Of a stretch of 64,000 nucleotides of DNA, positions 18,444 to 62,844 are shown piece by piece. Position 1 is the stretch's first letter; each line of letters opens with the position of its first letter. Position numbers and translations under genes: made by a program. A model generated the notes under the pieces. It was not told the DNA's origin. It was given only the letters and a program-made list of their open reading frames with translations, and searched no databases. The stretch lies in assembly GCA_947630815.1 (NCBI GenBank), contig CANRJD010000001.1, positions 34,127-98,126 on the forward strand. The letters run 5' to 3'. Source of the stretch: an uncultured Akkermansia sp. Its GTDB lineage: Bacteria > Verrucomicrobiota > Verrucomicrobiia > Verrucomicrobiales > Akkermansiaceae.

Positions 18444-18516
18444 GGGGTATTAGCTCAGTTGGTAGAGCGCCTCAATGGCATTGAGGAGGTCAGCGGTTCG
18501 AACCCGCTATGCTCCA
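18444..18516 (+). tRNA. tRNA-Ala (GGC), CCA not encoded
   Basis: Acceptor GGGGTAT/ATGCTCC-A with G3.U70; D-arm TAGCTCAGTTGGTAGAGC; anticodon arm CCTCA-ATGGCAT-TGAGG; GTTCGAA T-loop. Confidence 0.97.
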
Positions 18517-43325: not shown

Positions 43326-43345
43326 TTTGACATGCCGACCTCGGC

Positions 43346-44131
43346 ATGGACACAGCGACAGAAACCTCCAGCATGGCCCACGATACCAAGCAGCTTGCCC
43401 CTGCATCAGAGGATGCTTATCTTGTTGACAAGACAAGCACATTTGGTGCCGTGCGAAGCGGGCTGGCGGGCATCGAATTTACCGGCACCGGCTTGGTGAT
43501 TTCAACACCTACCGTGAGCGAGGAGGACTACAACGACATGTTCAACATGGTGCTCTCTCTGAATAAATCATGCCATTGGCTTCTAGGTGATGCGCTGCTC
43601 CTTGGTGATACCCAGTGGGGGAACCAGTACACAGAGTCGAAGTACGATGACGCCCGTAAGGCGACCGGCCTTTCTCTTAGTACACTGCGTAACATCGTCT
43701 ACACTTGCAAGAAGTTCCCCCGCAGCGCACGTCACAGCGACCTGAGCTTTACGCATCATCTGGAGGCGGCATCTATCAAGGATTCACCCGAGGCACGCGA
43801 AAGCGTCCTCCGTGAAGCATCCTCCAAGAGGATGAGCGTGAAGGACCTGCGTTGCGTCGTTCGTGAGGTGAAAGCCGAGCGCATGACCGATGAGGCCAAG
43901 GAGAAAATATGCCCCAATGATGACCGCCCCTTTGGCGTGCTGAGCCTGCCCACCAAGGAGGAGGCAGCCTCTGCGCTTCCTATTGCCTTTGAACTGGACA
44001 AGGCCGTGGTGTGGTTGCTCAAGAATCCGGTTGATAGCCTGACGCCTGAGCACCGCATCCAGCTGCAGGAGCGGCTGGCCCCGATTGTTGCGTATGCCGC
44101 CCAGCTCACCGAGGCCGGAGTACATCATTGA
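43346..44131 (+). CDS. Hypothetical phage protein
   Basis: WLLGD...LSFTHH motif pattern. Confidence 0.7.
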   Translation: MDTATETSSMAHDTKQLAPASEDAYLVDKTSTFGAVRSGLAGIEFTGTGLVISTPTVSEEDYNDMFNMVLSLNKSCHWLLGDALLLGDTQWGNQYTESKYDDARKATGLSLSTLRNIVYTCKKFPRSARHSDLSFTHHLEAASIKDSPEARESVLREASSKRMSVKDLRCVVREVKAERMTDEAKEKICPNDDRPFGVLSLPTKEEAASALPIAFELDKAVVWLLKNPVDSLTPEHRIQLQERLAPIVAYAAQLTEAGVHH

Positions 44132-44309
44132 TTGCTGATTTGACACGCTGACAGGAGTATGAAAGCGTCGCTCCAGACAAATGTCGCCGCTCAGGCGCCT
44201 GCGGAGAGTCGTTCCCCTCGGGACAGGAGGGGTATGAAGGCTTCCAGCGCGTGCTGAGTCTCTCTCGGACTCGACTCTTTTTGAAGGTTTGAGCGAGAAT
44301 TATTTTTTA

Positions 44310-44449
44310 CGGCTTCCCACTTTTTCGCCCATCGCCGTCAGGCCTCTGGGAAGCCGCAAATATCTGACGGCGATGGGCTCCAACGTCGGCTAAAGGACAT
44401 AAGTGCATAGTTACCGGGCGGGAAGTTCAGCACGAATTTTCCGCCCGGT
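44310..44449. ncRNA. Candidate structured RNA/DNA element (pseudoknot plus hairpin)
   Basis: Interleaved 10-bp and 15-bp perfect complementarities, then a 16-bp hairpin. Confidence 0.4.
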
Positions 44450-44529
44450 TTCTGCTACAAATCGCTTTGCAATAAGACACAACGGATGGATTGCTTTCCA
44501 CCCCGCATCGAGGTAATTAAATTGTCGTT

Positions 44530-44856
44530 ATGAACACAAATCCTACATCTAAAAAGGAGTTTGAGCCCCTCTTTGAGCCTGGTCGGTTACTTATTCACCG
44601 CTTGTTGATGAGCTATGCCGACCAAGGGCATTTTACGCATTATGATCTCATGTACGCGTTCTATCGCCACATGACCGGTGACTTCGGCAACCTCTGTGCC
44701 TCTGATAAGCAGGCCAACCGCGATGCCATCCGTACCGGTGACCGCATCCTATCGAAGTACCGCTTGCCTCACGGCCACGACGTCTACATTGAAACCACCG
44801 CCGTGTACGAGGGCAGGCGTGAAAGCACCACTATCTACCCCTGCAGTGAATATTGA
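44530..44856 (+). CDS. Conserved hypothetical phage/plasmid protein
   Basis: RH..GDFG.LC..DK.AN..A...G.RILS.Y motif. Confidence 0.75.
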   Translation: MNTNPTSKKEFEPLFEPGRLLIHRLLMSYADQGHFTHYDLMYAFYRHMTGDFGNLCASDKQANRDAIRTGDRILSKYRLPHGHDVYIETTAVYEGRRESTTIYPCSEY

Positions 44857-45036
44857 TACCTTTGGCCATGTACGAGTACCGTATTTCGTGACTGATTCCG
44901 GGCGAGAGGTGCCGAAATTGCATAAATCATTGAAAACAAGCAGAGAAAATTGTGCTTTTGTTGCTTTTTCCTCTGGCTTTTATCGTGATGCAGGAGTAAA
45001 TTAACACCGACAAGAACCATAAACCACTTAGATTCA

Positions 45037-45381
45037 ATGACACTCAAAGAACTACAGTACCGCGCCGGATTTGACCTCGCTTCCTTCTTTGCCGCTCAGG
45101 AGAACTTCATAGAGGCCATGGAGGATCTGCGCAAGTATCACCGCAAGAACGCAAACCGTACGGCCTGCGCCGAGCTGATGGCCACTCGTGTTGCCGAGAT
45201 TGGCGGATTCGCTGCTCAGATACTCGCCAAGGAGCGGAAAGAAAATACTTCCTCCTGCGATAATATGCTGGAAAATGCCCAGTTTGCCGCCCGTAACCTG
45301 CTGCACCAGTACTCCAAAATATCCGCTTACAGAATCCCGGTGGACCCGGACATCATCACCGAGGCCCAGTCCATTCTGTAA
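45037..45381 (+). CDS. Hypothetical protein
   Basis: Clean ORF with a good AT-rich upstream region. Confidence 0.6.
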   Translation: MTLKELQYRAGFDLASFFAAQENFIEAMEDLRKYHRKNANRTACAELMATRVAEIGGFAAQILAKERKENTSSCDNMLENAQFAARNLLHQYSKISAYRIPVDPDIITEAQSIL

Positions 45382-45449
45382 GAGGCACCCCCGTCATTTA
45401 CACCGGCCCCGAGGGAGAGGGTCGGTGCACTTGGCCATCACTGATTGCA

Positions 45450-45809
45450 TTATGGCATGCTCTGCCATATTCTTTCCAGCGTTGAATTGATGTCTCTAAG
45501 CTCCGATGAGTTGTCGGGAGTGTATATATCATCAATCTCTTTCTTAATACCATCGAGTGAGCTTTCTATATTTCGCAGCTTGGAAGATATATCTCTTAGC
45601 TCATACGAATAATCTTGGTAGCTATGTCCCGCATCAATGCTTCGTACAGCTTTAATAACTTGGGTTTGGTTGTACGCCATGTATCCGAGAAGCGCAAGGC
45701 CCGTGATAATGTAAACGTGAACCATAGCCCCCATACCTCGACGTCCGGGCTTGGGCTGGTCCTTGTTTTCTGAAGATGCTGTAGTGTTCGCAATTGATTC
45801 TTCTTTCAT
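45450..45809 (-). CDS. Single-TM coiled-coil protein (moron)
   Basis: Antisense to the phage operon, lower GC; TM VYIITGLALLGYMAY; ELRDI twice. Confidence 0.6.
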   Translation of the reverse strand: MKEESIANTTASSENKDQPKPGRRGMGAMVHVYIITGLALLGYMAYNQTQVIKAVRSIDAGHSYQDYSYELRDISSKLRNIESSLDGIKKEIDDIYTPDNSSELRDINSTLERIWQSMP

Positions 45810-45883
45810 GCTTTCAGTATATCGAATAGTGCACGCTATTGCAATACAAATAGCCGCTATCATTTGACACCGGGGCCTGAGGT

Positions 45884-46501
45884 ATGGGCTCCGGTGTCAT
45901 TTCTCGCGAAGTTGCCGACAAGATACTCGATGCCGACTTCGCCAACATTGTGCAGAAGGTTAAGGACGGTAAGACGCTATCCTCAACCGAGCGTGCCCGC
46001 GTACAGGCCCGTGCGGCCGGTAGTACCGAGACGCTATCGGTGGCCAAGACGGTTGTGGAGCTAGCCGCCGCGTTGGGTGTCACACGTCGAACAATTAGCG
46101 CGTGGCGTAAATTACCGGGGGCCCCGCAGCCCGCCGCCAACGGTAGCCATTCCGTGACCGCATGGCGTGATTTCGTCCGCGAGAATAGCCTGAAGGGAAG
46201 CGGTGAAATCACTGGTGGTCAGGTAGAAGCCCTGAAGGCACGCAAACTATTGGCTGAGGTGGAAGAACGCGAGTTGAAAGTGGCCGTGAAAAAAGGCGAG
46301 TACGTTCTCATTGAAGACGTGCGCCGCCGGTGGGTGATGCTGGTGGGCAAGGCTATTGCCCTCATGCGCGCCAAGTTCGAGAACGAGCTGCCGCCCATCA
46401 TGAGCGGGCTCGATGCCCAAGGAATCCGGGAGGAATCCGGCAAAGCAATCGATGAGATTTGCCGCTTGCTCCATACGGGAGAAGGAGAAAAATCGGCATG
46501 A
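45884..46501 (+). CDS. Terminase small subunit (Nu1-like)
   Basis: HTH ELAAALGVTRRTISAW, LKARKL...EL...KGEY; upstream of the large subunit. Confidence 0.75.
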   Translation: MGSGVISREVADKILDADFANIVQKVKDGKTLSSTERARVQARAAGSTETLSVAKTVVELAAALGVTRRTISAWRKLPGAPQPAANGSHSVTAWRDFVRENSLKGSGEITGGQVEALKARKLLAEVEERELKVAVKKGEYVLIEDVRRRWVMLVGKAIALMRAKFENELPPIMSGLDAQGIREESGKAIDEICRLLHTGEGEKSA

Positions 46502-46818
46502 GCTCGGTATTGGAAAATCGCTTTCTTCACCTGTGGGAACACAAAGGCGGGGCACCGTTGGAGCGTGAGTACCGCTTTCACCCGGAGCGCCGATGGAAGG
46601 CCGACTTTGCCCACCTTGGTAGCCGCACCATTATCGAAATCGAAGGCGGTGTCTGGTGCCATGGTCGTCATACGTCACCCAAGGGCTTCATGGCAGACGC
46701 CGAGAAATACCTCACGGCTACATTGTCCGGTTGGACTGTAATACGCCTGACATCACCCCAGCTAACACCGGAAATCATTGAGCAGGTAATCGAATATGTC
46801 CGCAGCAGAGAAACTTGA
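46498..46818 (+). CDS. Small PD-(D/E)XK endonuclease
   Basis: EYRFHPERRWKADFA...IEIEGG...EKY...GW. Confidence 0.8.
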   Translation: MSSVLENRFLHLWEHKGGAPLEREYRFHPERRWKADFAHLGSRTIIEIEGGVWCHGRHTSPKGFMADAEKYLTATLSGWTVIRLTSPQLTPEIIEQVIEYVRSRET

Positions 46819-48547
46819 CCGTATATGGAGGGAGGCATGGAGACCTCCGGACCGCCAACCCGTGTGGAGGTGGGCCGAGGAACACGTGCGCTCCATACCG
46901 TACAGTCCGATGCCCGGACGTTTTCGCGTTGAAAACTCCCCCATGATTAGGGAGGTCATGGAGGCTATCGTTGACCCGCGTATACGTCTGGTCAGCATCA
47001 TTGCATCCGTGCAGAGCAGCAAGACGACCGCGCCGGAAATAACCCTCTGCTACATCATTGCCAATTTACCCGGGCCCACGCTTTGGCTGGACCAGACCGA
47101 CGAGGATGCCAAAGACCAAAGCGAAGGACGCCTCCAAAAGCTTTTTGATGAATGCGCCCCGGTGCGCGAGCTATACCCGGCCGACCGTAACAAGAAGCGC
47201 AATGCCACCATACACTTTGCAAACGGCATGACCCTGTGGGTGGCCGGTGCCCACAATAAGAGCAACCTGCAGCGCCGCTCTATCCGCTGGCTCATCGGTG
47301 ATGAAACGTGGCGGTGGCCCGCTGGGCACATGGCTGAAGCCGAGGCCCGCGTGACCGCTTTCGGTTGGCTGGGCAAGTGCATCTTCATGAGCCAAGGCGG
47401 CTTTGAGGGAGACGATACCCATCGCAAGCATGATACCACCGACCAGAGGGAATGGCACTTCGTCTGCCCTCATTGCGGGGCCCGGCAGCCGTACCTGTGG
47501 CGCAATGTTCAGTGGGCCAAAGATTGCCAAACTGATGACGGAGAGTACGACTACCGTTATGTCCGTGATACCGCGCGTCTGGTGTGCAATAAGTGCTCGC
47601 ATGAGTTTGAGGATACCGATGAGAACAGACGCAGGCTCAATGCCTCTGGGTGCTTTGTTGCCCGTAACACCAAGGCGGCCAAGGAGAATGTCGGTTTTCA
47701 TTGGAACGCGTTATCCACTATGTCTTGGGGGGAACTGGCCGAAATGTACCTGCGCGCCAAGGTAGCCGCCAAGAAGGGTGATATCACGCTTCTGCAGCAA
47801 TTCTACCAGAAGCGCTTGGGCCTGCCGTGGAACGAGTTCACCGAGGATTACACGATTGAGCAAAGCCTGTCCGACTATCTCATGGACGAGCCTTGGGAGG
47901 AGGAAGGCAAGTTCAACGGTGTGCCACTCCGTGTGCTGACTGTCGACGTGCAGAAGGACCATTTCTACACCGTAGTGCGGGCATGGAGCCCCACAGGTTC
48001 ATCCCGCCTGATTCACTGTGAAAAGGTATTCTCGTGGGAGGCTCTTCGCGGGCTGCAGAAGCTCCACGGAGTCAATGATAATCTGGTCTTTCTGGACTGC
48101 GGTTACAGTACATACGACGTGTACGCGAAGTGCGCTGAATGCGGGTGGTATGCCCTTATGGGTGACCGCAAATCAACCTTCACTCACCGGACCAAAAACG
48201 GAAAGATGATTCAGCGCTTCTATTCGCCCAAGCGACGCGTCAGCGTAAGCCGCGACCGCGTGGCCACCATGTTCTATTGGAGCAATCTCAACATCAAGGA
48301 TTCACTGGCCCGACTGCGTAAGAATATCGACGGCCCCACGTGGGAGGTACCAAAAGACGCGCCCCAGGATTATCTCGATCAACTGGATTCAGAGCACCGC
48401 GTGTTTGAGCGTGGACGCTGGATCTGGAAGCAGAACCGTAATCGGGCCAACCACTATTTTGATTGTGAGGCCATGCAGGTGGCCGTTGCCAGCATGCTGA
48501 AACTCATTGGACAGGAAAATGCCAATGAGGATGGGGCCTCTATGTAA
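46796..48547 (+). CDS. Terminase large subunit (lambda gpA family)
   Basis: SVQSSKT, GDE, CPHCG, VDVQ, FLDCGY, NHYFDCE. Confidence 0.92.
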   Translation: MSAAEKLDRIWREAWRPPDRQPVWRWAEEHVRSIPYSPMPGRFRVENSPMIREVMEAIVDPRIRLVSIIASVQSSKTTAPEITLCYIIANLPGPTLWLDQTDEDAKDQSEGRLQKLFDECAPVRELYPADRNKKRNATIHFANGMTLWVAGAHNKSNLQRRSIRWLIGDETWRWPAGHMAEAEARVTAFGWLGKCIFMSQGGFEGDDTHRKHDTTDQREWHFVCPHCGARQPYLWRNVQWAKDCQTDDGEYDYRYVRDTARLVCNKCSHEFEDTDENRRRLNASGCFVARNTKAAKENVGFHWNALSTMSWGELAEMYLRAKVAAKKGDITLLQQFYQKRLGLPWNEFTEDYTIEQSLSDYLMDEPWEEEGKFNGVPLRVLTVDVQKDHFYTVVRAWSPTGSSRLIHCEKVFSWEALRGLQKLHGVNDNLVFLDCGYSTYDVYAKCAECGWYALMGDRKSTFTHRTKNGKMIQRFYSPKRRVSVSRDRVATMFYWSNLNIKDSLARLRKNIDGPTWEVPKDAPQDYLDQLDSEHRVFERGRWIWKQNRNRANHYFDCEAMQVAVASMLKLIGQENANEDGASM

Positions 48548-48835
48548 GCAAGGTTTCAATAATCGTAGTGGGCGTCTTTCTGCTCGCAGTATCCGTGGGA
48601 CAGGACATCATCTCGAGCTTTCAGCCACTGCTTTATCTCTTTTCGTCGTTCGTTGGCCGCGCATAAAGCACTCTCCAAGAACTAAAAACGCCACATTTGA
48701 CTCCATGTGACGCGATTGCTAGGGCTCCGCGTTAGTTTTCCCAGACCGGGGTGTTCCTACCCTTGTTGACGCCGTTGGAGGCCTTGCTGGGCGTAATACA
48801 TCTAACCGTCACCTTTTGACATGCCAGCTGGGGGT

Positions 48836-49420
48836 ATGGATATCCCGATTTTCTGCGCACACACGAAACAAGAAGACACGGCAGCCTTAGTGCCGAACCC
48901 GCGCAACCCCAACACGCACCCGAAGAAGCAGATTGAGCTTCTCGCCAAAATTATCAAGGCACAGGGCTGGCGTAATCCCATCGTTGTATCGAACCGCTCC
49001 GGCTTTGTGGTAAAAGGCCACGGTCGGCTTGCAGCCGCACAACTACTGGGCTGCGATAAGGTCCCGGTTGATTATCAGGACTACGCCAACGAGGCTATTG
49101 AATGGGCCGACATGGTGGCCGATAACCGCATCGCTGAACTGGCTGAGCTCGACGACAATACACTCAAGAGCGTGCTTGAAGATTTGCGGGGCCGGATTGA
49201 TATCGACCTGACGGGCTTTACCGTGCCGGACATCGAAGCCATGCTGGAGGAGAAGCAAGGGGGCAACGCCGAGAGCGAGGACAGCATAGGTGATACCGAG
49301 GGTATCACCGTCTCTCAGCAGTACGGTGTCATCGTCATGTGTGAATCCGAAGGCGAACAGGAGAAGACATACAACAAGCTCGTAGAAATGGGCTACACCT
49401 GCAAGGTTGTTGCCGTATGA
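48836..49420 (+). CDS. ParB-N/Srx-like domain protein
   Basis: LVPNPRNPNTHP, GWRNPIVV, GHGRLAAA, ADNRIAE. Confidence 0.88.
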   Translation: MDIPIFCAHTKQEDTAALVPNPRNPNTHPKKQIELLAKIIKAQGWRNPIVVSNRSGFVVKGHGRLAAAQLLGCDKVPVDYQDYANEAIEWADMVADNRIAELAELDDNTLKSVLEDLRGRIDIDLTGFTVPDIEAMLEEKQGGNAESEDSIGDTEGITVSQQYGVIVMCESEGEQEKTYNKLVEMGYTCKVVAV

Positions 49421-50577
49421 AGATAGAGGTACATAACCGCGTGGACGATTTCAACAGCTATCGTGCCGCACGAGTGAAAAGCCTGTTCAATGCCCAGAAC
49501 GGGTGCAACTTTGATTTGAGCATCGATGCCGACATGGGCGATGATTGGAATATCGGCGTTGTGGTTGGTCCCTCGGGCTCGGGCAAGACCAGTATCGGCA
49601 AGGTCATATTCGGTGAGAACCTGATACACGACTACACACGCGGGTGGGATGCCGACAAGCCTATTGTGGATTGCATTGCCCCCAATGGTGATTTCAATGA
49701 GGTTACCGGTGCGCTTGCCAGCGTAGGTCTTGGCGACGTGCCCGCATGGTTGCGTCCCTTTCACGTATTATCCAACGGCGAGCAATTCCGTGCGGGGCTG
49801 GCCCGCGTGCTTTGCGAGAAGCCGGAGCGTGTGGTCATGGATGAGTTCACCTCGGTGATTGACCGTCAGATTGCACGCATTGGCTCCATGGCGTTTGCCA
49901 AGAGCTGGAGACGCGGCAACCCCACAGGAAAAGTTGTTCTTCTTACCCCTCATTACGACGTGCTCGATTGGATTCAGCCGGACTGGATTATCGATACCAA
50001 GACCGGGCACTTTGAGAGGGGGTGTCTTCGGCGACCCTCATTTGAGCTCGAAATTATCAAGACGAACGGCAGTTATTGGAAGTACTTTAAGCCTCATTAC
50101 TATCTGAAATTGCCCATGCCTCCGGCCGCGGAGTACTTCGTGGGTCTTGTAAACGGTGAGCTGGCTTGTCATCTGGCCGTGTGCCCGTTCTTTACTGCCC
50201 CGGGGTACCGTGCAACCCGTCTGGTTACCATGCCGGAGTGGCAAGGTGCCGGTGTGGGTACCCGTTTTCTGAACTGGGTCTGCCAATACCATTTGGATGG
50301 CAAAGGCCGATGCGGCCGACACCTGCCGACCTATTTCCACACCAGCCACCCTCAACTGGTTGCTGCTTTGCGCCGCTCACAGCTCTGGATTCAGACCTCG
50401 GCCGTGTTGTACGGCGGAAACAAGGAGCGCAGCCGAAACTCGCTGCGCCGTTCACACAGAAAAAAGATGGTGCCCGGGAGGAACGGGAAAATAAAGACGC
50501 TGCCTATGGACGGTACCGGGTACGGTGGGCATTTCCGCGCCGTGCAAGGCTTCAAATACATAGGCAAACAATCATGA
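49417..50577 (+). CDS. ABC-type ATPase fused to a GNAT acyltransferase
   Basis: GPSGSGKT, LSNGEQ, MDEFTS; C-terminal RLVTMPEWQGAGVG; no TM segments. Confidence 0.85.
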   Translation: MKIEVHNRVDDFNSYRAARVKSLFNAQNGCNFDLSIDADMGDDWNIGVVVGPSGSGKTSIGKVIFGENLIHDYTRGWDADKPIVDCIAPNGDFNEVTGALASVGLGDVPAWLRPFHVLSNGEQFRAGLARVLCEKPERVVMDEFTSVIDRQIARIGSMAFAKSWRRGNPTGKVVLLTPHYDVLDWIQPDWIIDTKTGHFERGCLRRPSFELEIIKTNGSYWKYFKPHYYLKLPMPPAAEYFVGLVNGELACHLAVCPFFTAPGYRATRLVTMPEWQGAGVGTRFLNWVCQYHLDGKGRCGRHLPTYFHTSHPQLVAALRRSQLWIQTSAVLYGGNKERSRNSLRRSHRKKMVPGRNGKIKTLPMDGTGYGGHFRAVQGFKYIGKQS

Positions 50578-51206
50578 ATATCTTTCTCACAGGCCAAAAG
50601 AGCTTTGGCAAGGCGGTTTTCCTTGCCCTGCGTGAAGACGGGCACAACATCGTGGGCGTGGCACCGGCACCGCCCAAGAAGTATTACGACAAGCTCCATG
50701 GTATTGCCCTCCGTTACAATGTGCCGGTGGTATGTGATGCGGGTCGTCTCACGTCTGACCATATCCCCGAGGAAACAGACTTGATTGTAGCGGCCCATTC
50801 CCATTGGTTCGTATCCGACCAGGCTGTGAAGAAAGCACGCCTTGGGGCCATCGGATACCACCCGTCCTTGTTACCGCGCCACCGCGGACGCGATGCCGTC
50901 CGTTGGACCGTGGCCTGCGGGGACCCAATTACCGGTGGCAGCATCTACCGTTTGAACGATAAAGTGGACGGCGGCAATATCCTCATGCAGAGCCTGCAAT
51001 TCGTCGATAGAAACTGGGGCCATCATGAGCTATGGAAACAGCTGTTTCCTGCCGGTGTCAAGCTGGTTAGAGATAGCGTCAGGCTATTAGCCACCGAGGG
51101 ATTTGTGGAAGGCGCTCCTCAGGATGAACGCTTTGCCACGTGGGAGCCTCCCTTTGATCCCTCGGCCCGCTTGTTCAGGCCCGAGTTATTACAGTTGCCC
51201 CAGTAG
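50574..51206 (+). CDS. Formyltransferase (Fmt/PurN N-terminal domain)
   Basis: GYHPSLLPRHRG, TGGSIY, VDGGNI; ATGA overlap with the upstream gene. Confidence 0.88.
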   Translation: MNIFLTGQKSFGKAVFLALREDGHNIVGVAPAPPKKYYDKLHGIALRYNVPVVCDAGRLTSDHIPEETDLIVAAHSHWFVSDQAVKKARLGAIGYHPSLLPRHRGRDAVRWTVACGDPITGGSIYRLNDKVDGGNILMQSLQFVDRNWGHHELWKQLFPAGVKLVRDSVRLLATEGFVEGAPQDERFATWEPPFDPSARLFRPELLQLPQ

Positions 51207-51290
51207 GAAGGAATGTTTATAACTGCTTAACGGCTTAAGCTATCTCATTATAATCAATTCTCTGCAGCTTTTTGACACCCGCTTTGTGGT

Positions 51291-51488
51291 ATGTTCACAT
51301 ATATTTTCAACCGACTGAAGGAACGCTCCACGTGGCTGGGTATCATCGCACTTGCCACGGCTTGCGGCGTGACGATTGAGTCCCTTCTTGCTGAACAGAT
51401 TATCGCCGCGGGTATGGCCCTTGCCGGTATCGTCAGCATCATGACCAAGGACGGCACCGACAAATCTACCGAGGAAAAGGAGAGCTAA
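51291..51488 (+). CDS. Holin-like small membrane protein
   Basis: RLKERSTWLG plus two TM segments and a charged tail; precedes the endolysin. Confidence 0.7.
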   Translation: MFTYIFNRLKERSTWLGIIALATACGVTIESLLAEQIIAAGMALAGIVSIMTKDGTDKSTEEKES

Positions 51489-51492
51489 TCTA

Positions 51493-52080: not shown

Positions 52081-52092
52081 TTCATCGCACCT

Positions 52093-54574: not shown

Positions 54575-55342
54575 ACCCATATTTAGGAAAAGAATTAATC
54601 TTTCTATGTAATAGGATTTTAGACAATGAATCAAACCAGATGAGGAGACTCCATGCTGTATCATGCCGATTAAGCAAGGGTATCCGTCATCTAGTATAGT
54701 AAACACCCCTCCTCCGCTTATTCCATCGGTAGAGAACTCATCTGAACTATGCGGTGTATCAACTAATCCCGAAGAGTCAAATTTTACCTTCAGCAAGTGA
54801 GAAGAATATTTATCCACTGAAATTAGCCCTACGCGAGTTATTCGATGTTGGTGTACAATACGGTTTTCCTCATCGGTATTTCCCCCAAATCTATTGGGAT
54901 AACCAGAAATACCTACTAGCCCACCGCGTGATAAAGCGGCGTCCTTGAATAATCCAAGAGAAGGTAATTTACTTGCAGAAGTATATAACAAGGTGTAATC
55001 ATCGGGCAAAACTTCCTTCAATTTGTATATGACAAGGTCATCCTCATCTCTGATTTCATTTGGATTGTATTGGGGTAAATGGATAATTTTCCACTGAGCG
55101 TTGATAATCTTTTTATTAAGGAAGTATATATTCATTGCGTCAAACTCCTCTCTAAGCCCTTTCATGAGGTTAGCTTTGTCATGAAAAGTGTGTTTGCAGC
55201 ATACCAGATATATTTCGTTTTTGTATAAGGTGATGCACCCGCTCCCGTGGTGTTCTATTCCATATTCGCCATGGTTAAAACCTAGCATCACAACGGATTG
55301 GGACATTCGCCTTAACTCATCGTCTGTATACTTTACTTTCAT
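54557..55342 (-). CDS. Trypsin-like serine protease (low-GC moron)
   Basis: CCKH (His), DDL (Asp), GYP, GISGGGVF (Ser). Confidence 0.7.
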   Translation of the reverse strand: MKVKYTDDELRRMSQSVVMLGFNHGEYGIEHHGSGCITLYKNEIYLVCCKHTFHDKANLMKGLREEFDAMNIYFLNKKIINAQWKIIHLPQYNPNEIRDEDDLVIYKLKEVLPDDYTLLYTSASKLPSLGLFKDAALSRGGLVGISGYPNRFGGNTDEENRIVHQHRITRVGLISVDKYSSHLLKVKFDSSGLVDTPHSSDEFSTDGISGGGVFTILDDGYPCLIGMIQHGVSSSGLIHCLKSYYIERLILFLNMGLPVPS

Positions 55343-55402
55343 ATACCCCTATTATACCACACTTTTTCGGCTAGGAGTGATTTTTGACACCTCCCTCAAA
55401 AT

Positions 55403-55831
55403 ATGGATACCATAGACGAACAACTCGACAATGCTGTAGCTAAAGTCAACGACCTCACAGGGCAGTTGGCTGCTGCTCAGGAGAACTTAGAGACAGTCAC
55501 GGCAGAGAAAGCAACGCTGGAAGCGATCAATGCTGAGCTGACGGACAACCTCACGGCGGCGAAGGACAAGCTCGCTACTCAGGAGGTGGAATTGCACGAA
55601 GCCCACGCACAGATTGAGCGGCTCAAAGCTGACGCAAAGTCTGCCGAGCAGCGCGCTGCTGAGTTTTACGGCGCGAGCGCAGGGCGATCCGAGGCAGTCA
55701 CCCCCAAAGGAGATCCGCCCACGCTACCGGTTGCGGAGAGATTCAAGGCTCTCCAGTCGCCCTCCGAACAAACTCTCTTTATCCGCTCCCTTTCTCAAGC
55801 AGAGAGGGCTGAACTTTTCGCTAACTTCTAA
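55403..55831 (+). CDS. Coiled-coil scaffold-like protein
   Basis: Heptad-rich; immediately upstream of the capsid gene. Confidence 0.6.
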   Translation: MDTIDEQLDNAVAKVNDLTGQLAAAQENLETVTAEKATLEAINAELTDNLTAAKDKLATQEVELHEAHAQIERLKADAKSAEQRAAEFYGASAGRSEAVTPKGDPPTLPVAERFKALQSPSEQTLFIRSLSQAERAELFANF

Positions 55832-55851
55832 CCACCCACCTACAGACAATT

Positions 55852-56757
55852 ATGGCCAATACCATCACCGACCTCAAAGACGTGCGGATTTCGCAAGCCG
55901 CCCTCATGCCGTGGATGACGGAGCTTCTTCCGCTCACTGCATTCAGTACGAACTTCTCACCGGACGCGGCAGACAAGCTGGACACCATTAAAGTGCCCGT
56001 CATCGGCATGCCCTCCGCTTCCTCGGATTATGAGGGCGACTATACGGCAAACTCGGACAGTGAAGCAAGCTCTGTTCCTGTTGTCCTCAATCGCCACAAG
56101 TACAAGACTGTGCACTTGACTGCCAAGGAAGCCGCCACCACGGCTATCCCACTGTTGGAGAAGCTCGTGACCACGGCAGCTCAGCAACTTGCCATTGACG
56201 TGATGACGGACATCTTCTCCTGCATCACGGCGGCGAACTACGGCTCTCCCGCCATTCCTGCACTTCCCGCTGAGGAGTTCAACTACAAGACCATCATCAA
56301 GATACGCGAAGCCTGTGCCGCAGGTAAAATGCCGCAAGACCAGCGTTCTCTGATTCTGGATAACTCGTTCTTCTCTTCGCTGCTTGCCGATGACATTGTG
56401 GCAAAGTCGTATATCACGCCCTTGGCTCAGTCTGGCGTGGTAGATGCCAAGATCAACCGCATTGCCGGGTTCAGTCTCTACGAGACAAACTGCATCCCGG
56501 ACAATGAGGAGAATCTTGTTGGCTTTGCCGCCCATCCGTCCTCGCTTGCTATCGCCATGCGCTACCTCACCCCAATAGCCAACTACGATGAAGCGGGAGC
56601 AGTTACCGATCCTGTTACCGGGCTGACTTTCGGCTATCTGCGCTACACCGACACCAAGAGCAATAAGGTATATATCACCCTTGAAGCTCTGTATGGTTAC
56701 TCGGTAGTTCGCTCGGCCGGATTGAAACGTATTGTCACGACCGATTCTGCCGAGTGA
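55852..56757 (+). CDS. Major capsid protein
   Basis: MANTIT, DTIKVP, R.LILD, IAGF..YE, EALYG; size and position. Confidence 0.8.
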   Translation: MANTITDLKDVRISQAALMPWMTELLPLTAFSTNFSPDAADKLDTIKVPVIGMPSASSDYEGDYTANSDSEASSVPVVLNRHKYKTVHLTAKEAATTAIPLLEKLVTTAAQQLAIDVMTDIFSCITAANYGSPAIPALPAEEFNYKTIIKIREACAAGKMPQDQRSLILDNSFFSSLLADDIVAKSYITPLAQSGVVDAKINRIAGFSLYETNCIPDNEENLVGFAAHPSSLAIAMRYLTPIANYDEAGAVTDPVTGLTFGYLRYTDTKSNKVYITLEALYGYSVVRSAGLKRIVTTDSAE

Positions 56758-56764
56758 TTCCGTC

Positions 56765-57067
56765 ATGTCGCTGAGTGATGAAATGACCAGGGACTTTCTC
56801 GCACTTCGTGAGGAAGTTCCTGTTTTCCTTTCCTGCGGAGATGCTTTTTGTATGGTGCTAGTCTCGCAGGACTCGCGCTCTCATGACCTCGCGCTTGGCG
56901 GCTTTTCTCCAAAGCGCAGTATCAGTGTGAGAGCGTTGCGAGCCGAGCTACCCGATAATCTCAAGGAGGGGGCGCTTGCGCTGGTGGATGGCATTTCCTA
57001 TCGCGTGGGAAACATCGCCATTCGCCCCGGTCTACCCATAGTTTCTCTCGAACTGACAGAGCCATGA
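56765..57067 (+). CDS. Head-tail joining protein
   Basis: Position; GGF...VDGISYRV. Confidence 0.6.
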   Translation: MSLSDEMTRDFLALREEVPVFLSCGDAFCMVLVSQDSRSHDLALGGFSPKRSISVRALRAELPDNLKEGALALVDGISYRVGNIAIRPGLPIVSLELTEP

Positions 57068-57612
57068 TTTCGGTGAACATTAAAGATGATGAACTCGACC
57101 GAAAGGTAGCCGCATGGGCTGTTGTCAGTGGCAAAGGACTCGAAGGAGCCGTGCGGGAGGTCGCCGGGCGTTTTGTGCGAGCCGCAATTCGCAACACGCC
57201 GCCAATGATCGCCCGCAGCTCCCCTGCGCAGGCCAAGCGTGAGTGGACGGCGCGTGTGGTGGCAAACTATGAAAAAAAGCCCTATGTGCGCGGTCAATGG
57301 CTCTCCAAGGCTGAAATGCGGCGCGAGCTGGCGGCAAAAAAGAAGCAACTCGGTCGAGAAGCTGCTGGGTGGAATCAGGCGGCGGCAGAGCTGAATATCA
57401 AGCCCCCGGCATGGGTGAAGCGTCACTCTGGTGAAGGTGCGTGTCGCTTTGTTTCTCGGGACAGCTCGTACAGTATCTCGGTTTGCAACTCCGTTCCTTA
57501 TGGGCAAGACCTATTGCGGCACAGGGCCGATTTTACCCTGCGCTCAGTCAAGGCCGGGCTGGATGGCTCGCTACGGGCGATGAAGAAAAAACTTCTGCGT
57601 AGTACGAGATGA
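57064..57612 (+). CDS. Neck/tail completion-like protein
   Basis: RNTPP...NSVPY; position. Confidence 0.55.
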   Translation: MISVNIKDDELDRKVAAWAVVSGKGLEGAVREVAGRFVRAAIRNTPPMIARSSPAQAKREWTARVVANYEKKPYVRGQWLSKAEMRRELAAKKKQLGREAAGWNQAAAELNIKPPAWVKRHSGEGACRFVSRDSSYSISVCNSVPYGQDLLRHRADFTLRSVKAGLDGSLRAMKKKLLRSTR

Positions 57613-58004
57613 AAACACACTCCGTCAATGAGACCCTGCGATTCTGTCTGGGCAAGGCATTCCCCAAATTAGCTATCCAAACACCTCTCAATGCGGAGGA
57701 ATTATCGCTTCCCTATATCTTGCTATCCAGCACAGCTGAAGAGGAGTGTATTACGCGTAATAGCACTTGGCGATTCTCCCTCTCCGTGGAGATTCACACA
57801 TCTGCCTACGGTACGCCGGACACGGAGGGTCGCAGGCTGGCAACACTCGTGCTTCAGTACCTCGCCATGTGTACCGGTGACCTCAACAAAGTCGCTGAGG
57901 ATTTCTACGTTTACTCCGTCCAGCTGGAAAGCGTAGACGAACCACAGGTGCAGGAAACTGACTTTATCCAACGTGCCACTTTCCGTCTCATCATTCAATT
58001 TTGA
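57609..58004 (+). CDS. Tail terminator-like protein
   Basis: LPYI...; position before the tail tube. Confidence 0.5.
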   Translation: MKTHSVNETLRFCLGKAFPKLAIQTPLNAEELSLPYILLSSTAEEECITRNSTWRFSLSVEIHTSAYGTPDTEGRRLATLVLQYLAMCTGDLNKVAEDFYVYSVQLESVDEPQVQETDFIQRATFRLIIQF

Positions 58005-58019
58005 CATCCCTCTCAAATT

Positions 58020-58382
58020 ATGGCAACTATCATTGGAACAGTCGGCGTTTTTGGTTTTGAGGAAGATCAACAGGGTATTCTTCTGGAGTCGCAGGACATA
58101 GACTATAAGCCCGATAGCAAGGTGCAACGTGACTATCGCGGCGTTAAAGTCGGCATTATTTTTTATGATGACCAGACGGACGTGAGCATGAAGGGGTATA
58201 TCCCTCGCGAAAATCCTACCGATATTAAGGTGGCTCAGACGCTCACGCTTGCGAATGCTGCACCGGATCACGGCATGAGTACGGTGTCATCTGGAACTAA
58301 CGTGGTGACTGGGATCAAGATCGGTCTCAAGAATGAGGATTTAGCGAGCTTTGAAGTTTCCTCCACCATCTATGACTTCTGA
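58020..58382 (+). CDS. Probable tail tube protein
   Basis: Beta-rich 120 aa; position. Confidence 0.5.
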   Translation: MATIIGTVGVFGFEEDQQGILLESQDIDYKPDSKVQRDYRGVKVGIIFYDDQTDVSMKGYIPRENPTDIKVAQTLTLANAAPDHGMSTVSSGTNVVTGIKIGLKNEDLASFEVSSTIYDF

Positions 58383-58794
58383 TGCCCTCAATTTTATCCG
58401 CTCTGGGGATAGTGACTTGGAGTCTCTCATGTTGGCTGCTTGCTTAACTGCGTTGGGGATACCATTCAGCGAACGCCCGGCATTCAAGGTGAGCGGAGAC
58501 ACCGCCCCTGTTGTGAACTGGCTCTTTGACGAAGCGTCTACCGATGGCAAACACAAGGCGTCGGAGATGATTTCCCGGTGGAATGACAAAGCGTGGATTA
58601 CGCGCGAAGATAATGAACACCACCTCGCCTACATGGCGGCAGCTATGCGAAATCTCAAAACTCTCATTCAGCATCATATTGGACAAGCTCCCAATGTGGA
58701 GTTGGTTAAGAAAGGCAACAAAACACTCATCATTCCTGAGGGGGTTCCCGAAGCTCAGCTTGGACTCCTTATCCGTAAATTCACACGTTCCTAA
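58372..58794 (+). CDS. Hypothetical phage protein
   Basis: LAACLTALGIP; in the tail operon. Confidence 0.6.
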   Translation: MTSDALNFIRSGDSDLESLMLAACLTALGIPFSERPAFKVSGDTAPVVNWLFDEASTDGKHKASEMISRWNDKAWITREDNEHHLAYMAAAMRNLKTLIQHHIGQAPNVELVKKGNKTLIIPEGVPEAQLGLLIRKFTRS

Positions 58795-58799
58795 ACACC

Positions 58800-59213
58800 A
58801 TGGCTATCAACATTCAGACACGCGAAAATATGAACGCTCGCTCTATGCTGGCTCCTGAAAGCACAGGCATCGCTGGGCTTACTCTGCGCCCCATTTCACT
58901 TGGCTCTATGGAGCTGCTACGGCAGGTAAACAACCCTCTTGCCACAGGCGACACAGAGGTGGAGATCGATTCGCACACGCTTGCCGAGTTTATCTGGATT
59001 CATGCTGCACCCTTAGACGAAATCATGGAAACGGTCTATGATTACCCCTCTCAGGTGGGTAAAAAGGTGACGCTGTTTTGCATGAACATTTCCCCTACAG
59101 ACATATCCAAGGTGGCGGCGAGCTTGGCAGGTGACCGAGCGGCAGTCATTGCTGCATCTGCCCGGCCACTCAATGAAGGAAATGAAAGCCCAAACGCGCC
59201 AACCCATCCTTGA
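58800..59213 (+). CDS. Tail assembly chaperone (gpG-like)
   Basis: Position; slippery C CCA AAC at 59189-59195. Confidence 0.65.
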   Translation: MAINIQTRENMNARSMLAPESTGIAGLTLRPISLGSMELLRQVNNPLATGDTEVEIDSHTLAEFIWIHAAPLDEIMETVYDYPSQVGKKVTLFCMNISPTDISKVAASLAGDRAAVIAASARPLNEGNESPNAPTHP

Positions 59214-59431
59214 CCGCAACAGTAGTTTTTACTATTGCACGCGCCACAGGATGGGCTGAAGAAAAAATCCTATGGATGCCGCTTAGGAAGTGTCTGCAAT
59301 ACCTCCACGCCGCTTGGATATCCGAAGGGGTGAATACGGATTGGAACGTGTTGACCGAGGTCGAGCAACACGAGGCATTAGCCCTGTACGACCGATTGAA
59401 ACATTTGGCTGCAAAAGTTCAACATGGCTGA
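59189..59431 (+). CDS. gpT-like -1 frameshift extension
   Basis: -1 frame open from the slip site; IARATGW....I..MPL. Confidence 0.6.
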   Translation, partial: PKRANPSLTATVVFTIARATGWAEEKILWMPLRKCLQYLHAAWISEGVNTDWNVLTEVEQHEALALYDRLKHLAAKVQHG

Positions 59432-61943
59432 TGTAGAGTTCACCTTTTCTGGCAACGCCGCTTCACTGAAAGCCGCTCTCAATGACATCAAGAGCGAGAT
59501 TTCGCGTACGAAAGAATCTGTCGCTCATTTGACTGCCCAATTCGGGCAAATGTACATTGGTGTGCAAGGAGCCATCGCCGCCATCCGTACGGCTTGGACA
59601 GCCCTCAGCAACATCCCCGGACAGGCAGCACGTATAGAGGACTTGACGACGGTTTTCAAGGGACTCATGGGCAGCGCGGAGGAAGCCGGAGAGCTCTTGA
59701 ACGGACTCTGGCAAGATGCAGCACACGGCGCAGTCGGGCTTGAAGAAATGGCTGCTGCTGCACGACCGCTCACCAATGTATTCTCGAATACAGAAACAAT
59801 CCGAGAATGGACAAGGCGCTTTGCCGATATTTCCACAGGCTCAGGTGTAGCAGCTTCGCAACTGAGCAAAGTTTATGCCAGAATCCTGACGCTTGGCAAG
59901 GTTGATTCCCGCGCCGTGGAAAGTCTCGCTAAGCAGGGCTTGCCCATTTATCAGGAGCTTTCGGCGGTTATGGGTGTAACGGCGGACAAGGTGCAGGAGC
60001 TTGCCAAAAAAGGTGAAATCTCCGCTGAGCAATACACCGCTTCTCTCCGCAGAATGACCGGTGAGGGCGGGCAGTTTTATCAGCAATCAACCCAGCTCTC
60101 CAACACCGCACAAGGAAGCTGGAACACGCTCACCGAAACAATCAATCGCGCCGCCGCTGCACTAGGTACGCCTATCAACGCAGCGATTACTCCGCTGCTG
60201 AATGATATGACGGAGGCATTGGAGAAAATCATGCCCAATATAGAAGCCTTTGCCCGAAGTTTTGTCGAGGGTATGCAAAGCTTCGCGAAAATCATTGCTC
60301 CGGCAGTTGAAGGACTGGGGCAACTTATCAGCGCACTGGGCGGAGGTAAGACAGTCATTGCTTCTGTGGCTGCGGCTCTCCTGATATACTCCGGCAGTGC
60401 TCAGACAGCGGCGACGAGTACGACTTCCCTCCGAGCGCAAGTGGCCACCCTGCTCGCTTCGATGCGCTCTCTGGGGAGTGCGTCTATTGCTCAAGCTTTC
60501 AAGACGAGCATGACGAGCATTCGCTCTGTGATGACTAGCACGCTTGCGGGAATGCGCGTTGCATGGAATGCGGCGTGGACGACCATGGCGGCTGTCACAA
60601 GAGCTGCTATGATAGCGGTGAAAACCGCCATTGTCAGCACAGGTATCGGACTCATCATTGTGGGTATTGGCGAAGCTCTCGGTGCTTTGTATAGTTGGTT
60701 CATGGGGAATAGCGAAGCCGCCAAGCAAGCGGCAGAATCCGCGCGACAATTTGAGCGGGCGTTAGGGCAGATAGAGAAGCAAGCGCGCAAGGTCAGGACG
60801 CAGGAGCAATACGACTCCTTTATGGAGGAGCTTGAAGCCCGCATCGAGGAGTTGAAAGAAGCGCGCGAGATGGCGTACCAAAATGAAGATTGGGATAAGG
60901 GCGAACAGTTGACAGAACAACTTGATAAGCTCTGGAAGAAGAAAGCCATCTACAAAGAAACACTCCCTCTGCAAATAGAGGAAGCCCGCAAGGCTGAGGA
61001 GGCGGCGCGGCGTATGAAAGAACAGGCAGAGGCTGCCGCAGAACTGGAGAAAAAACTCGAAGCCGCTCGGGAAAAGCTCGACGACATGGTGAAGAAACAG
61101 CAGGAAAAGTCTCGTGAGGATTACCTCTCCGGGATAGAAGATACCGACAAGCAGATCACCTTCCGCTTACAGGACGCAGGAGGATTTAATTCGCTGCGAG
61201 AACTCAAGGCGGCGATGGAAGAGCTTTCCCGCACCACGCTCATGCAGGAAAGTGACGTTGAACGCTATGAACGCATGGCGAACGCCTACAATAAAATTGT
61301 GGAGCTTCAGAAGAAAGCCGCCGATAAAGAGAAGGAGAAAGTCAAAACAGCGGCAGAAGCACTTGCTGAATACCAGCGCGAGGAAGCTATCTTGGCGGCT
61401 CAGGCATCGGGAAATACCCGCCTTGTCAGCAAGCTCAAAGAGCAACAGCGCATCGTTCAGCTCACGGAGCAATACCGCAAAGCAGGTATGGCTGATGCCG
61501 AGGAACGCGCCAAGCGTATCGTGGAGCTGGAGAAAAGGTCAGACACCCAAAAAGCACAAAAGGACTACACCTCTGAGATGACTATGCTTCGTGCTCAGAT
61601 TGCGGGAGATGAGAAAAAACTCGCCCTGCTCAAACAACAGCAACGCATCACCCAGCTCACGGAAGAGTTCAGGAATCAGGGGCTTGCTAATGCCGAAGCC
61701 AAGGCAAAGAAACTCGTGACTTTGGAGCAGAAAGCTGCAGCAGCAGCCTCAATCTCGCCTGCCACCCGCATAAGTGACAGTATGGCAAGTGTCGGAGGAG
61801 GCGGTCGTTCTGTCGTGATAGGTGGTCCAATGCTGAGTGAAAGTAAGAAACACACGAAGCTGCTGCAAGAGGTTGGTGTCGCTCTCAAGCAAAAGCCTAC
61901 CGTACAACTTAGCGGCACATTGAAAGCCGTCATCTCGCGTTGA
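59424..61943 (+). CDS. Tape measure protein
   Basis: Ala-rich helical protein; GLPIYQEL...MGV...EL...GEIS motif. Confidence 0.9.
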   Translation: MADVEFTFSGNAASLKAALNDIKSEISRTKESVAHLTAQFGQMYIGVQGAIAAIRTAWTALSNIPGQAARIEDLTTVFKGLMGSAEEAGELLNGLWQDAAHGAVGLEEMAAAARPLTNVFSNTETIREWTRRFADISTGSGVAASQLSKVYARILTLGKVDSRAVESLAKQGLPIYQELSAVMGVTADKVQELAKKGEISAEQYTASLRRMTGEGGQFYQQSTQLSNTAQGSWNTLTETINRAAAALGTPINAAITPLLNDMTEALEKIMPNIEAFARSFVEGMQSFAKIIAPAVEGLGQLISALGGGKTVIASVAAALLIYSGSAQTAATSTTSLRAQVATLLASMRSLGSASIAQAFKTSMTSIRSVMTSTLAGMRVAWNAAWTTMAAVTRAAMIAVKTAIVSTGIGLIIVGIGEALGALYSWFMGNSEAAKQAAESARQFERALGQIEKQARKVRTQEQYDSFMEELEARIEELKEAREMAYQNEDWDKGEQLTEQLDKLWKKKAIYKETLPLQIEEARKAEEAARRMKEQAEAAAELEKKLEAAREKLDDMVKKQQEKSREDYLSGIEDTDKQITFRLQDAGGFNSLRELKAAMEELSRTTLMQESDVERYERMANAYNKIVELQKKAADKEKEKVKTAAEALAEYQREEAILAAQASGNTRLVSKLKEQQRIVQLTEQYRKAGMADAEERAKRIVELEKRSDTQKAQKDYTSEMTMLRAQIAGDEKKLALLKQQQRITQLTEEFRNQGLANAEAKAKKLVTLEQKAAAAASISPATRISDSMASVGGGGRSVVIGGPMLSESKKHTKLLQEVGVALKQKPTVQLSGTLKAVISR

Positions 61944-61965
61944 TTTTGACACAGCCACCGAGAGT

Positions 61966-62844
61966 ATGGCAAGTCAGGTAAAAATCAGCACAGACAGCAG
62001 CGGGGCCAAGCGCATCTGCTTCGGCAACTGCGATTACGTTGTCACAGCAATGGAATATGAGAGAGATGACAAGAACGGCGACTCCTATGTCCTGACTTAT
62101 GAGGCAGAGGGTTCACCCTCGGCAGGCATGCTACCTGCTATCGGCAGCGGTGTAAATGTTATGTCCGGTCTCCACCTGAGCAAAGCCGTAGCCACCTCAG
62201 CAGAGGGAGGCGTAACGACAATAAAGCTCACATTCTCAGAATCTCAAACCGAAGGAGACGGCGGCGGTGACGATGCCGCAGACGAAGAGGAGGATGGCAG
62301 CGGGAATGATGACACCGCCAAGGAAGCTGCTGAGACTGGAAAATACGGCTACAAGTGCAGTTTGGACGTAACATTGACGGACGAACCGCTCCTGACGCAT
62401 CCAAAATTTTCTGGAACAAGTGGAGCCACGCTGGAATACGTCAAAGCGCTCATGGATGGTGCGCGCATGTGGGAATTAGTGCCGGTAGTTGATAGAGACG
62501 GGAAGCCTCAGGTGGACAAAGATGGGTTGCCCATCAAGAAAAGACTTGGTTCCCTCTTACAAGGCGGGGGTAAACTCGTTGAACTCGCGCAAAAAGGTGT
62601 TACTACCTACAAAAGTCCAGCTGCAACCTTTTCTGAGTCGTACGTTTCAAAGAGCGGTTCTGTGGATACGAGCGGCGTTGGTCAGGTTGGGAAACCTGGC
62701 GGTGCACCCGTTTTTAAGGGACGCGATTGGCTGCTCGTTTCCCGCAACGCCTCTCTAAACGATGATGGCAAAACCTACACCGTTTCCAGCGTGTGGATGC
62801 TTTCGGGCGTAGGTGGTTGGGACTCCGATTTGTACGGTGGTTAA
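61966..62844 (+). CDS. Tail protein
   Basis: EPLLTHPKF, GGWDSDLY; follows the tape measure gene. Confidence 0.6.
   Translation: MASQVKISTDSSGAKRICFGNCDYVVTAMEYERDDKNGDSYVLTYEAEGSPSAGMLPAIGSGVNVMSGLHLSKAVATSAEGGVTTIKLTFSESQTEGDGGGDDAADEEEDGSGNDDTAKEAAETGKYGYKCSLDVTLTDEPLLTHPKFSGTSGATLEYVKALMDGARMWELVPVVDRDGKPQVDKDGLPIKKRLGSLLQGGGKLVELAQKGVTTYKSPAATFSESYVSKSGSVDTSGVGQVGKPGGAPVFKGRDWLLVSRNASLNDDGKTYTVSSVWMLSGVGGWDSDLYGG

Follow-up and report, generated by a model that had tools for sequence, protein, structure and literature searches.

We analyzed a 64-kb window of DNA, G000:C1:34127-98126, from an uncultured Akkermansia sp. (the whole stretch examined) that carries a siphovirus-type Akkermansia prophage, and within it a short element, TTGACA followed 13 or 14 nt later by ATG, that stands at the head of the prophage late genes. 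The + strand from 38.2 kb onward forms the right arm of the prophage and encodes, in order, DNA polymerase A, a DUF5906 primase-helicase, orf187, orf261, the small and large terminase subunits (TerS and TerL), a ParB-like gene and the lysis module of a small gene and an endolysin, followed by the portal, the protease, a gene in the scaffold position, the major head protein, the tail genes and the tape measure protein. On the − strand, the left arm terminates with a serine recombinase gene (31944-33239).

A pattern search of the window found eight exact copies of TTGACA-N13/14-ATG, all on the + strand between 43327 and 61968, and a one-mismatch copy with CTGACA at 53743 and its ATG at 53762. 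A first-pass annotation of this DNA had listed these nine pairs, and each was found exactly where it had been placed (Table 1). The same search gave no copies in the left arm or in the divergent early control region at 38.1 kb. In 100 dinucleotide-preserving shuffles of the window, the mean number of copies was 1.05 and the maximum was 4. With the preceding T included (TTTGACA-N13/14-ATG), only four sites were present on both strands of the rest of the 2.09-Mb, 130-contig genome, each before an open reading frame (ORF) of ≤30 aa, and the prophage late region was enriched ∼400-fold over the rest of the genome; the enrichment over host and shuffled sequence on which the earlier claim depended was therefore found. 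The hexamer was preceded by T in all eight perfect copies, and T lay directly 5′ of the ATG at seven of the nine sites, in keeping with the earlier observation that this base is usually T. We conclude that the element is real and that the first-pass annotation understated it.

Table 1. Copies of the element in the prophage, the linked gene orf187, and divergent pairs of the element in related loci (coordinates of the latter refer to the locus named).
Feature	Coordinates	Strand	ORF length (aa)	Gene headed or description
orf187	42792-43325	+	177	Candidate trans factor; own strong Shine-Dalgarno sequence; ends 1 nt before the first hexamer
Site 1, TTGACA-N13-ATG	43327-43348	+	261	orf261 (43346-44131), conserved, DUF3102/ParB-helix-turn-helix-like features
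Site 2, TTGACA-N13-ATG	44140-44161	+	32	32-codon ORF (44159-44257)
Site 3, TTGACA-N14-ATG	45864-45886	+	205	Small terminase TerS (45884-46501)
Site 4, TTGACA-N14-ATG	48816-48838	+	194	ParB-like gene (48836-49420)
Site 5, TTGACA-N13-ATG	51272-51293	+	65	Gene (phrog_8494) just 5′ of endolysin
One-mismatch site, CTGACA-N13-ATG	53743-53764	+	270	Head maturation protease (53762-54574)
Site 6, TTGACA-N13-ATG	55384-55405	+	142	Scaffold-position gene (55403-55831), 5′ of major head protein
Site 7, TTGACA-N13-ATG	58001-58022	+	120	Tail-region gene (58020-58382)
Possible weak site, TTCACA-N14-ATG (one mismatch)	58780-58802	+		Gene 58800-59213
Site 8, TTGACA-N14-ATG	61946-61968	+	292	Gene after tape measure protein
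Divergent pair, L081	14010-14046			
Divergent pair, L084	14089			
Divergent pair, L082	8121			
Divergent pair, L094	9555			
Divergent pair, L085	7583			
Divergent pair, L012	9027			

The distribution of the element was followed in 78 Verrucomicrobial loci with a related TerL (937 kb) and in 22 loci with only a distant TerL (312 kb). Relatives with a TerL 76-82% identical to that of the prophage occur in Akkermansia metagenome-assembled genomes, and those at 57-67% identity occur in Chthoniobacteraceae, Terrimicrobiaceae, Opitutales and other Verrucomicrobiota; no isolated phage was found with a TerL more than 27% identical. The element was present in 69 of the 78 related loci, with 208 copies on the TerL strand, versus 5 copies in the 22 distant loci. 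The spacing of 13 or 14 nt reported by the first-pass annotation holds in the window and is too narrow for the relatives, in which the range is 13-17 nt (94 copies at 13 nt, 47 at 14, 19 at 15, 54 at 16 and 8 at 17, with ∼3 at other distances). Among 237 distinct + strand TTGACA hexamers, 150 had a start codon 12-18 nt downstream that opened an ORF of at least 80 codons (ATG at 129, GTG at 20 and TTG at 1). The same orthologues were headed in many loci: orf261 in 19, TerS in 41, the ParB-like gene in 30, the pre-portal gene in 25, the protease in 33 (as TTGAC followed by A, T or G) and the scaffold-position gene in 21. Alignments of the orf261, TerS, ParB, protease and scaffold orthologues begin at residue 1, and the motif-linked ATG is therefore the true start. 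The open-access literature searched contained no account of an element of this kind from phages of Akkermansia or Verrucomicrobia. In the window itself, the pre-portal gene (52093-52356) has a GTG start and no hexamer, and its site appears to have been lost or replaced.

The hexamer varied in the manner of a −35 box. At this distance from the start codon, TTGACA was counted 144 times, TTGACG 23 times and TTGACT 16 times, and other changes were rare. Upstream of the hexamer only the preceding base was conserved; the T seen by the first-pass annotation is characteristic of the Akkermansia lineage and is replaced by G elsewhere. Downstream, the first eight bases of the spacer were C-rich and unconserved, and spacer positions 9-12 were G-rich in every spacing class. 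Since this G-run keeps its place at positions 9-12 whatever the spacing, it belongs to the hexamer and not to the ATG, from which it is separated by 1-5 nt. Counted from the ATG, positions −5 to −2 were G-rich, and a pyrimidine occupied −1 at 71% of motif sites versus 46% of control starts (Fisher p = 3e-7). The first 20 nt of motif genes had less structure than those of controls, which would fit the requirement of leaderless mRNAs for a weakly structured 5′ end. Four RNA runs chosen by species label gave 0 reads on 43001-62500, a result that does not bear on the mechanism either way.

These features were compared with promoters of the host. TTGACA is the host −35 box genome-wide, where it occurs in TTGACA-N17-TAnAAT promoters, and because the start codon often follows the −10 box by 6 nt, the distance from TTGACA to the start codon peaks at 29-32 nt for real ORFs (21 nt where the ATG lies within TAGAATG), in agreement with the value of 29 nt given by the first-pass annotation for host leaderless promoters. 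In host promoters of the form TTGACA-N17-TAnnnT-N6-ATG, the −1 base was C or T in 88% and positions −6 to −2 were G-rich. In a Cappable-seq study of mouse caecum, Akkermansia muciniphila was reported to have −35 and −10 elements, with about 10% of its start sites leaderless (PMC4782308). The exact TTGACA of the eight prophage sites thus equals the host −35 consensus, both genome-wide and in those published data. An unrelated lytic Verrucomicrobia phage, P8625, has the long form (e.g. TTGACA-N17-TATTGG-N7-ATG) and no short form. Canonical sigma-A leaderless promoters of the host and of P8625 therefore share with the prophage element the TTGACA, the G-rich stretch and the pyrimidine before the start codon or transcription start site, but they have a 17-bp spacer, a TAnAAT and 29-32 nt to the ATG, whereas the prophage element has 13-17 nt and no −10 box. 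The five bases of play in the prophage spacing would be about what the choice of start site allows, as judged from host −10-to-ATG distances of 6-9. In P8625, canonical TTGACA-N17-TATnnG-N7-ATG units occur at 5412, 10736, 15558 and 22406, which are leaderless promoters of normal geometry. A host copy of the short form, tttTTGACA-N14-ATG at position 18869 (+) of contig G000:C11, has a GGAGG/CCTCC hairpin around its ATG and opens an ORF of only 28 codons.

The known promoter signals compared with the element did not account for its remainder. A −10 box at 17 bp would be intragenic, as the first-pass annotation had pointed out: the position 16-18 bp downstream falls inside the ORF, and a position matrix of 238 hexamers showed neither the A at −11 nor the T at −7 of a TAnnnT at this distance. 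An extended −10 built on the TG of the ATG gave no signal, and one built on the TG of the hexamer (at −15/−14) was rejected, because just 12% of sites have a T at spacer base 4, which would be the −7 position. The flanks did not match the Bacteroidetes-type −7 box TAnnTTTG (as judged by eye), nor was there the conserved upstream GG of a sigma-54 −24/−12 promoter. No gene for a phage RNA polymerase or a sigma-region-2-like protein was recognized with PHROGs or Pfam among the ORFs screened, which in the window comprised most large ORFs from 18.8 to 62.8 kb and in a related locus (L011) comprised ten ORFs that precede terS.

One explanation for the fixed G-run is that the hexamer occupies the −10 or extended −10 place of a phage-redirected polymerase, with its TG at −15/−14 and its last A at −11, and that transcription starts in the G-run 9-11 nt downstream to give leaders of 4-8 nt (e.g. 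GGGU-AUG). Polymerase geometry would set such a constant distance from the hexamer in all spacing classes, would leave the distance from the G-run to the ATG free to vary over 1-5 nt, and would suit the preference for purine starts. However, all six positions of the hexamer are conserved in the −35 pattern and not the TG and A alone, T is not enriched at spacer position 4, the −7 equivalent, the pyrimidine at −1 would have no role, and sites that lack a G-run exist (e.g. 55384 and 58001). We regard short leaders of this kind as distinctly improbable.

The element occupies the place of a ribosome binding site, and we considered signals of translation. A Shine-Dalgarno (SD) sequence was rejected, the G-run being only 1-5 nt from the ATG and anchored to the hexamer and not to the start; polA, orf187 and the endolysin gene have true SDs (AAAGGAGG, 6-8 nt from the start) instead of the element. 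An rRNA-complementary enhancer was rejected for want of UGUCAA in the 16S rRNA of a same-order relative (the assembly that contains the window has no 16S). The TGA within the hexamer ended the upstream gene at about one-third of sites, as at site 7, where it is the stop codon of the preceding gene; this is the frequency given by random frame and tight packing, and a role as a coupling stop was discarded. The element marks exactly the late genes that lack translational coupling to their upstream neighbor. A hairpin between the spacer and the first codons was possible at about a third of sites (self −6.8 versus swapped −5.6 kcal/mol, p = 0.007), and at site 3, before TerS, the spacer pairs with codons 2-4 (dG −16.3). 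A universal hairpin was rejected: a dG ≤ −8 was enriched about two-fold (30% versus 15%), yet most sites had none, and the positions of the arms varied.

Pairs of the element in opposite orientation were informative about where transcription would have to begin. Six related loci contain CAT-N13/14-TGTCAA-N2-8-TTGACA-N13/14-ATG, with start codons 42-47 bp apart (Table 1). The genes of each pair are real ones: on one side is a ParB-methyltransferase fusion (phrog_498, E ∼1e-119) and on the other phrog_503 (E 6e-29) or TerS, and the ParB-methyltransferase gene is found in either orientation with the element retained. The two hexamers are the sole conserved content of the GC-rich 47 bp between divergent starts, and no canonical promoter was found within ∼300 bp of the pair in L081 or L094. 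A shared upstream transcript is impossible for divergent genes. Because the pairs leave no room for another promoter, they argue that the element would be a self-contained promoter plus start.

The same pairs bear on the possibility that the signal acts in RNA, where UUGACA 13-17 nt 5′ of AUG on long polycistronic transcripts would be bound by a factor, of the phage or of the host, that recruits ribosomes to cistrons without an SD or keeps them away. Such a role would suit the position of the element at uncoupled late genes, its strong ATG preference and the subset of sites with spacer/coding hairpins, which have compensatory arms at TerS and orf261 and hold the AUG mostly in the loop. Mu Com, which binds 5′ of a start-codon hairpin, is a possible analogue. 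That phages can hold start-linked repeats is shown by the start-associated sequences (SAS) of mycobacteriophages (PMC3203893). Against this, each promoter of a divergent pair 42-47 bp apart would have to sit inside the other gene, the hexamer is the host −35 box in every host lineage and varies at position 6 in a manner that is not G-U-compatible, and other late genes without an SD, such as that for the major head protein, are translated without the element. The absence of UGUCAA from the 16S rRNA and the placement of the G-run, too close to the AUG for an SD, also count against an RNA signal, as does the linked protein described below, a helix-turn-helix (HTH) protein of DNA-binding type. The first-pass annotation had offered a compressed promoter that gives leaderless mRNAs and a translation-initiation element as alternatives; the evidence, all of it from sequence, now favors the promoter, and we consider the translational alternative unlikely.

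A gene linked to the element encodes a candidate trans factor. The ORF at 42792-43325, orf187, lies immediately before the first site (Table 1), and its earlier nomination as a candidate factor was supported to the extent that it is a gene linked to the element; a second nominee, the ORF at 18859-19755, is external to the prophage, whose start is near the serine recombinase, and gained no support. Homologues of orf187 were present in 24 related loci, and in the twelve examined in detail they lay directly upstream of an orf261 homologue with the first element. Extra contigs of the orf187 family (43-62% GC) had the same arrangement and the same element, and the family comprises 1739 representative clusters in metagenomes (E ≤ 1e-3). 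In the predicted structure of orf187, a disordered linker joins three N-terminal helices to a four-helix HTH domain at the C-terminus. For residues 80-154, the best structural matches were nearly all sigma region 4 domains, those of HrdB, SigB, SigD, SigL, SigE bound to −35 DNA and Taq sigma-A (Z 5.0-5.7, root-mean-square deviation 3.5-4.9 over 61-78 residues), and the Atlas neighbors included viral Sigma70_r4 clusters at a modest 0.84-0.85. A profile search against the PDB gave only weak matches to HTHs of the KorA/LuxR type (E 0.015-0.05), and the N-terminal 60 residues (three helices, predicted local distance difference test score 86) had no structural match above Z 3.8. From this linkage and predicted fold, orf187 is likely to be the trans factor for the element. 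In the lineage of Verrucomicrobia bacterium LW23 (loci L046 and L091), TTGACT-N13-ATG/GTG occurs at two genes (3736-3764 and 15290-15317), there is no exact TTGACA, and the orf187 homologue is divergent (63 bits); this lineage may have a weakened or shifted version of the system.

We propose that the TTGACA-N13-17-ATG units each combine a self-contained late promoter with a start codon and would yield leaderless mRNA in an orf187-dependent manner, and we give this reading just short of an even chance. It is favored because the hexamer varies like a −35 box, the context of the ATG resembles that of host leaderless genes, divergent pairs occur, and the linked gene resembles sigma region 4. With the A of the start codon as +1, TTGACA would lie at about −20 to −14, followed by two bases, a six-base C-rich unconserved slot in place of the −10 box, the G-run as discriminator and a pyrimidine at −1, and transcription would start on the first base of the start codon, A or G; coupling would allow translation of the genes further down each module. 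Lacking a −10 box, the sites should stay inactive with host RNA polymerase alone, and the late genes would be silent in the lysogen. Firing would need orf187, produced from the preceding early or middle operon. In one form of the proposal, the HTH of orf187 itself would read the hexamer; in another, orf187 would act as a sigma-region-4 look-alike and free host sigma region 4 to read TTGACA beside the melting region. Since the hexamer stays the same across the orf187 family and is identical to the host −35 box, it may be host sigma region 4, rather than orf187, that reads it. Carried furthest, this second form would define a new class of bacterial promoters without a −10 element, in which an orf187-family look-alike replaces host region 4, the freed region 4 reads TTGACA and transcription starts exactly on the start codon, so that each module would have a 20-bp promoter-plus-start unit, inactive during lysogeny and transferable in both orientations. 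We think so specific a scheme improbable as a whole.

Several observations weigh against the proposal of an orf187-dependent leaderless promoter. The 13-17 bases between the hexamer and the ATG contain no A/T-rich −10-like element, and no sigma-70-type holoenzyme is known to open such DNA; a new mechanism would therefore be required. Position −17 is out of reach for a sigma region 4 that is seated on the beta flap. The hairpins between spacer and codons would exist in RNA only if transcripts started upstream of the ATG. As to orf187, several loci that bear the element have no orf187 within the fetched flank, and no Pfam family was assigned at E ≤ 0.01, the Sigma70_r4 and Sigma70_r4_2 profiles being unmatched. 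Its sigma-region-4 match is modest (Z below 6), a level compatible with a common helical arrangement. The family also has recognition helices of two highly dissimilar kinds, GMSKQAFHYH being that of the Akkermansia type and GVTRAAVSKR that of the remainder; TTGACA accompanies each of them, which makes direct reading of the hexamer by orf187 less plausible.

Some of the geometry proposed for the leaderless promoter has parallels. For the lack of any −10-like sequence, no precedent is known. Nickels and colleagues (2002) are reported to have found Q-engaged region 4 at lambda PR′ on a TTGACT that 1 bp separates from the −10-like pause element. Given this placement of region 4 at lambda PR′, the close arrangement of hexamer and melting region would be physically possible. 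The published lambda PR′ sequence does show a second TTGACT (PMC4604602). The phage proteins T4 AsiA/MotA, P23-45 gp39 (PMC3950348) and lambda/82 Q, of which Q captures the flap tip (PMC4914094), contact the beta flap, sigma region 4 or both and shift the promoter geometry that host polymerase accepts, as we envisage here, but all of these still depend on a −10 or −10-like sequence that sigma region 2 recognizes. By analogy, orf187 may act on polymerase like AsiA, gp39 or Q. Late regulons of several promoters and sigma-like activators are known from Mu C, P2 Ogr, P1 Lpa and RinA/ArpU-type proteins, the last of these encoded next to terS. The prophage resembles these systems in having a small activator-like gene just 5′ of the packaging genes and several putative late promoters that head modules, but sites for activators of the Mu C, Ogr and Lpa type lie at −22 to −55 and work with a −10 box, and the RinA type serves a single late promoter.

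Two families of repeats in mycobacteriophages behave similarly. The SAS of Cluster K phages are asymmetric repeats in one orientation, with many copies per genome, a near-fixed short distance 5′ of starts, a strong ATG preference and conservation across related phages (PMC3203893). In contrast to the element, which consists of the host −35 hexamer 13-17 nt from the start in the late structural half, the SAS is a 13-mer, GGGATAGGAGCCC, that lies 3-7 bp from the start, contains an SD core and occurs in the non-structural half of the genome; sequence and distance both differ, the likeness is in behavior only, and we rejected the element as an SAS. The stoperators of Cluster A phages (L5 gp71 type) are many asymmetric sites along transcription in short intergenic gaps, bound by a small phage HTH protein (PMC9283540), but they are spread over the whole genome including the early promoter operator, repress, and have no tie to start codons. 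The element was rejected as a stoperator system, its sites being confined to 43327-61968 (+) and lacking from the left arm and the 38.1-kb divergent region.

A broader form of this last idea is that TTGACA is an asymmetric site at which a phage regulator (orf187 or a different protein) binds to set the timing of late transcription or to silence it, as an operator or roadblock, while the real promoters lie elsewhere. The L5-type stoperator consensus reportedly contains TGTCAAG, the complement of CTTGACA, which we counted in favor of an operator, as we did the many asymmetric sites all along transcription in short gaps, the likeness of the back-to-back hexamers to a palindromic operator and the HTH gene linked to the element. 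Because the sites are confined to the late region, with none in the early divergent control region or the left arm, the element is not an immunity operator. Moreover, an operator leaves unexplained both the tight 13-17 nt link to the start codon, which is kept even where intergenic gaps are 270-800 bp, and the start-site-like context of the ATG. We therefore hold an operator or roadblock to be decidedly unlikely.

If the sites are leaderless promoters as proposed, they would be an exception to the requirement of sigma-70-type initiation for a −10 element ∼17 bp away from the −35 box and would represent a new route by which phages re-programme host RNA polymerase. In Akkermansia and other Verrucomicrobiota, for which few genetic tools exist, they would also provide an expression unit of 20 bp that works in either orientation and depends on a factor; if the element instead acts in RNA, start-associated sequences would have a second, independent example. 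The signature helps to call late-gene starts and prophage boundaries in Verrucomicrobiota metagenomes, and it marks a large uncharacterised family of small phage regulators.

Other signals were observed among the right-arm genes. A canonical promoter-like sequence, TTAACG-N16-TATAAT (10/12 matches), lies at 51227-51254 (+), 18 bp 5′ of the TTGACA at 51272, and the lysis module may thus have two kinds of start. A − strand moron of 261 aa without a family hit (54557-55342) lies between the protease and the scaffold-position gene, after which site 6 resumes the + strand genes. Its promoter (55343-55375) is a canonical extended −10 of host type, TGgTATAAT-aggggt-atATG (N6), from which the moron is probably expressed in the prophage as a near-leaderless mRNA. 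A strong terminator-like hairpin of 15 pairs followed by a T-run is found at 56788-56822 (+), ∼30 bp 3′ of the stop codon of the major head protein gene (56757), and the next TTGACA site is 1.2 kb downstream of it. To the left of the prophage, a low-GC island (40-46% GC at 22-30 kb) comes after a tRNA-Ala gene (18444-18516) and carries type I restriction genes on the − strand (R subunit, 28049-30928; S subunit, 25036-26640); the island is separate from the prophage and its serine recombinase.

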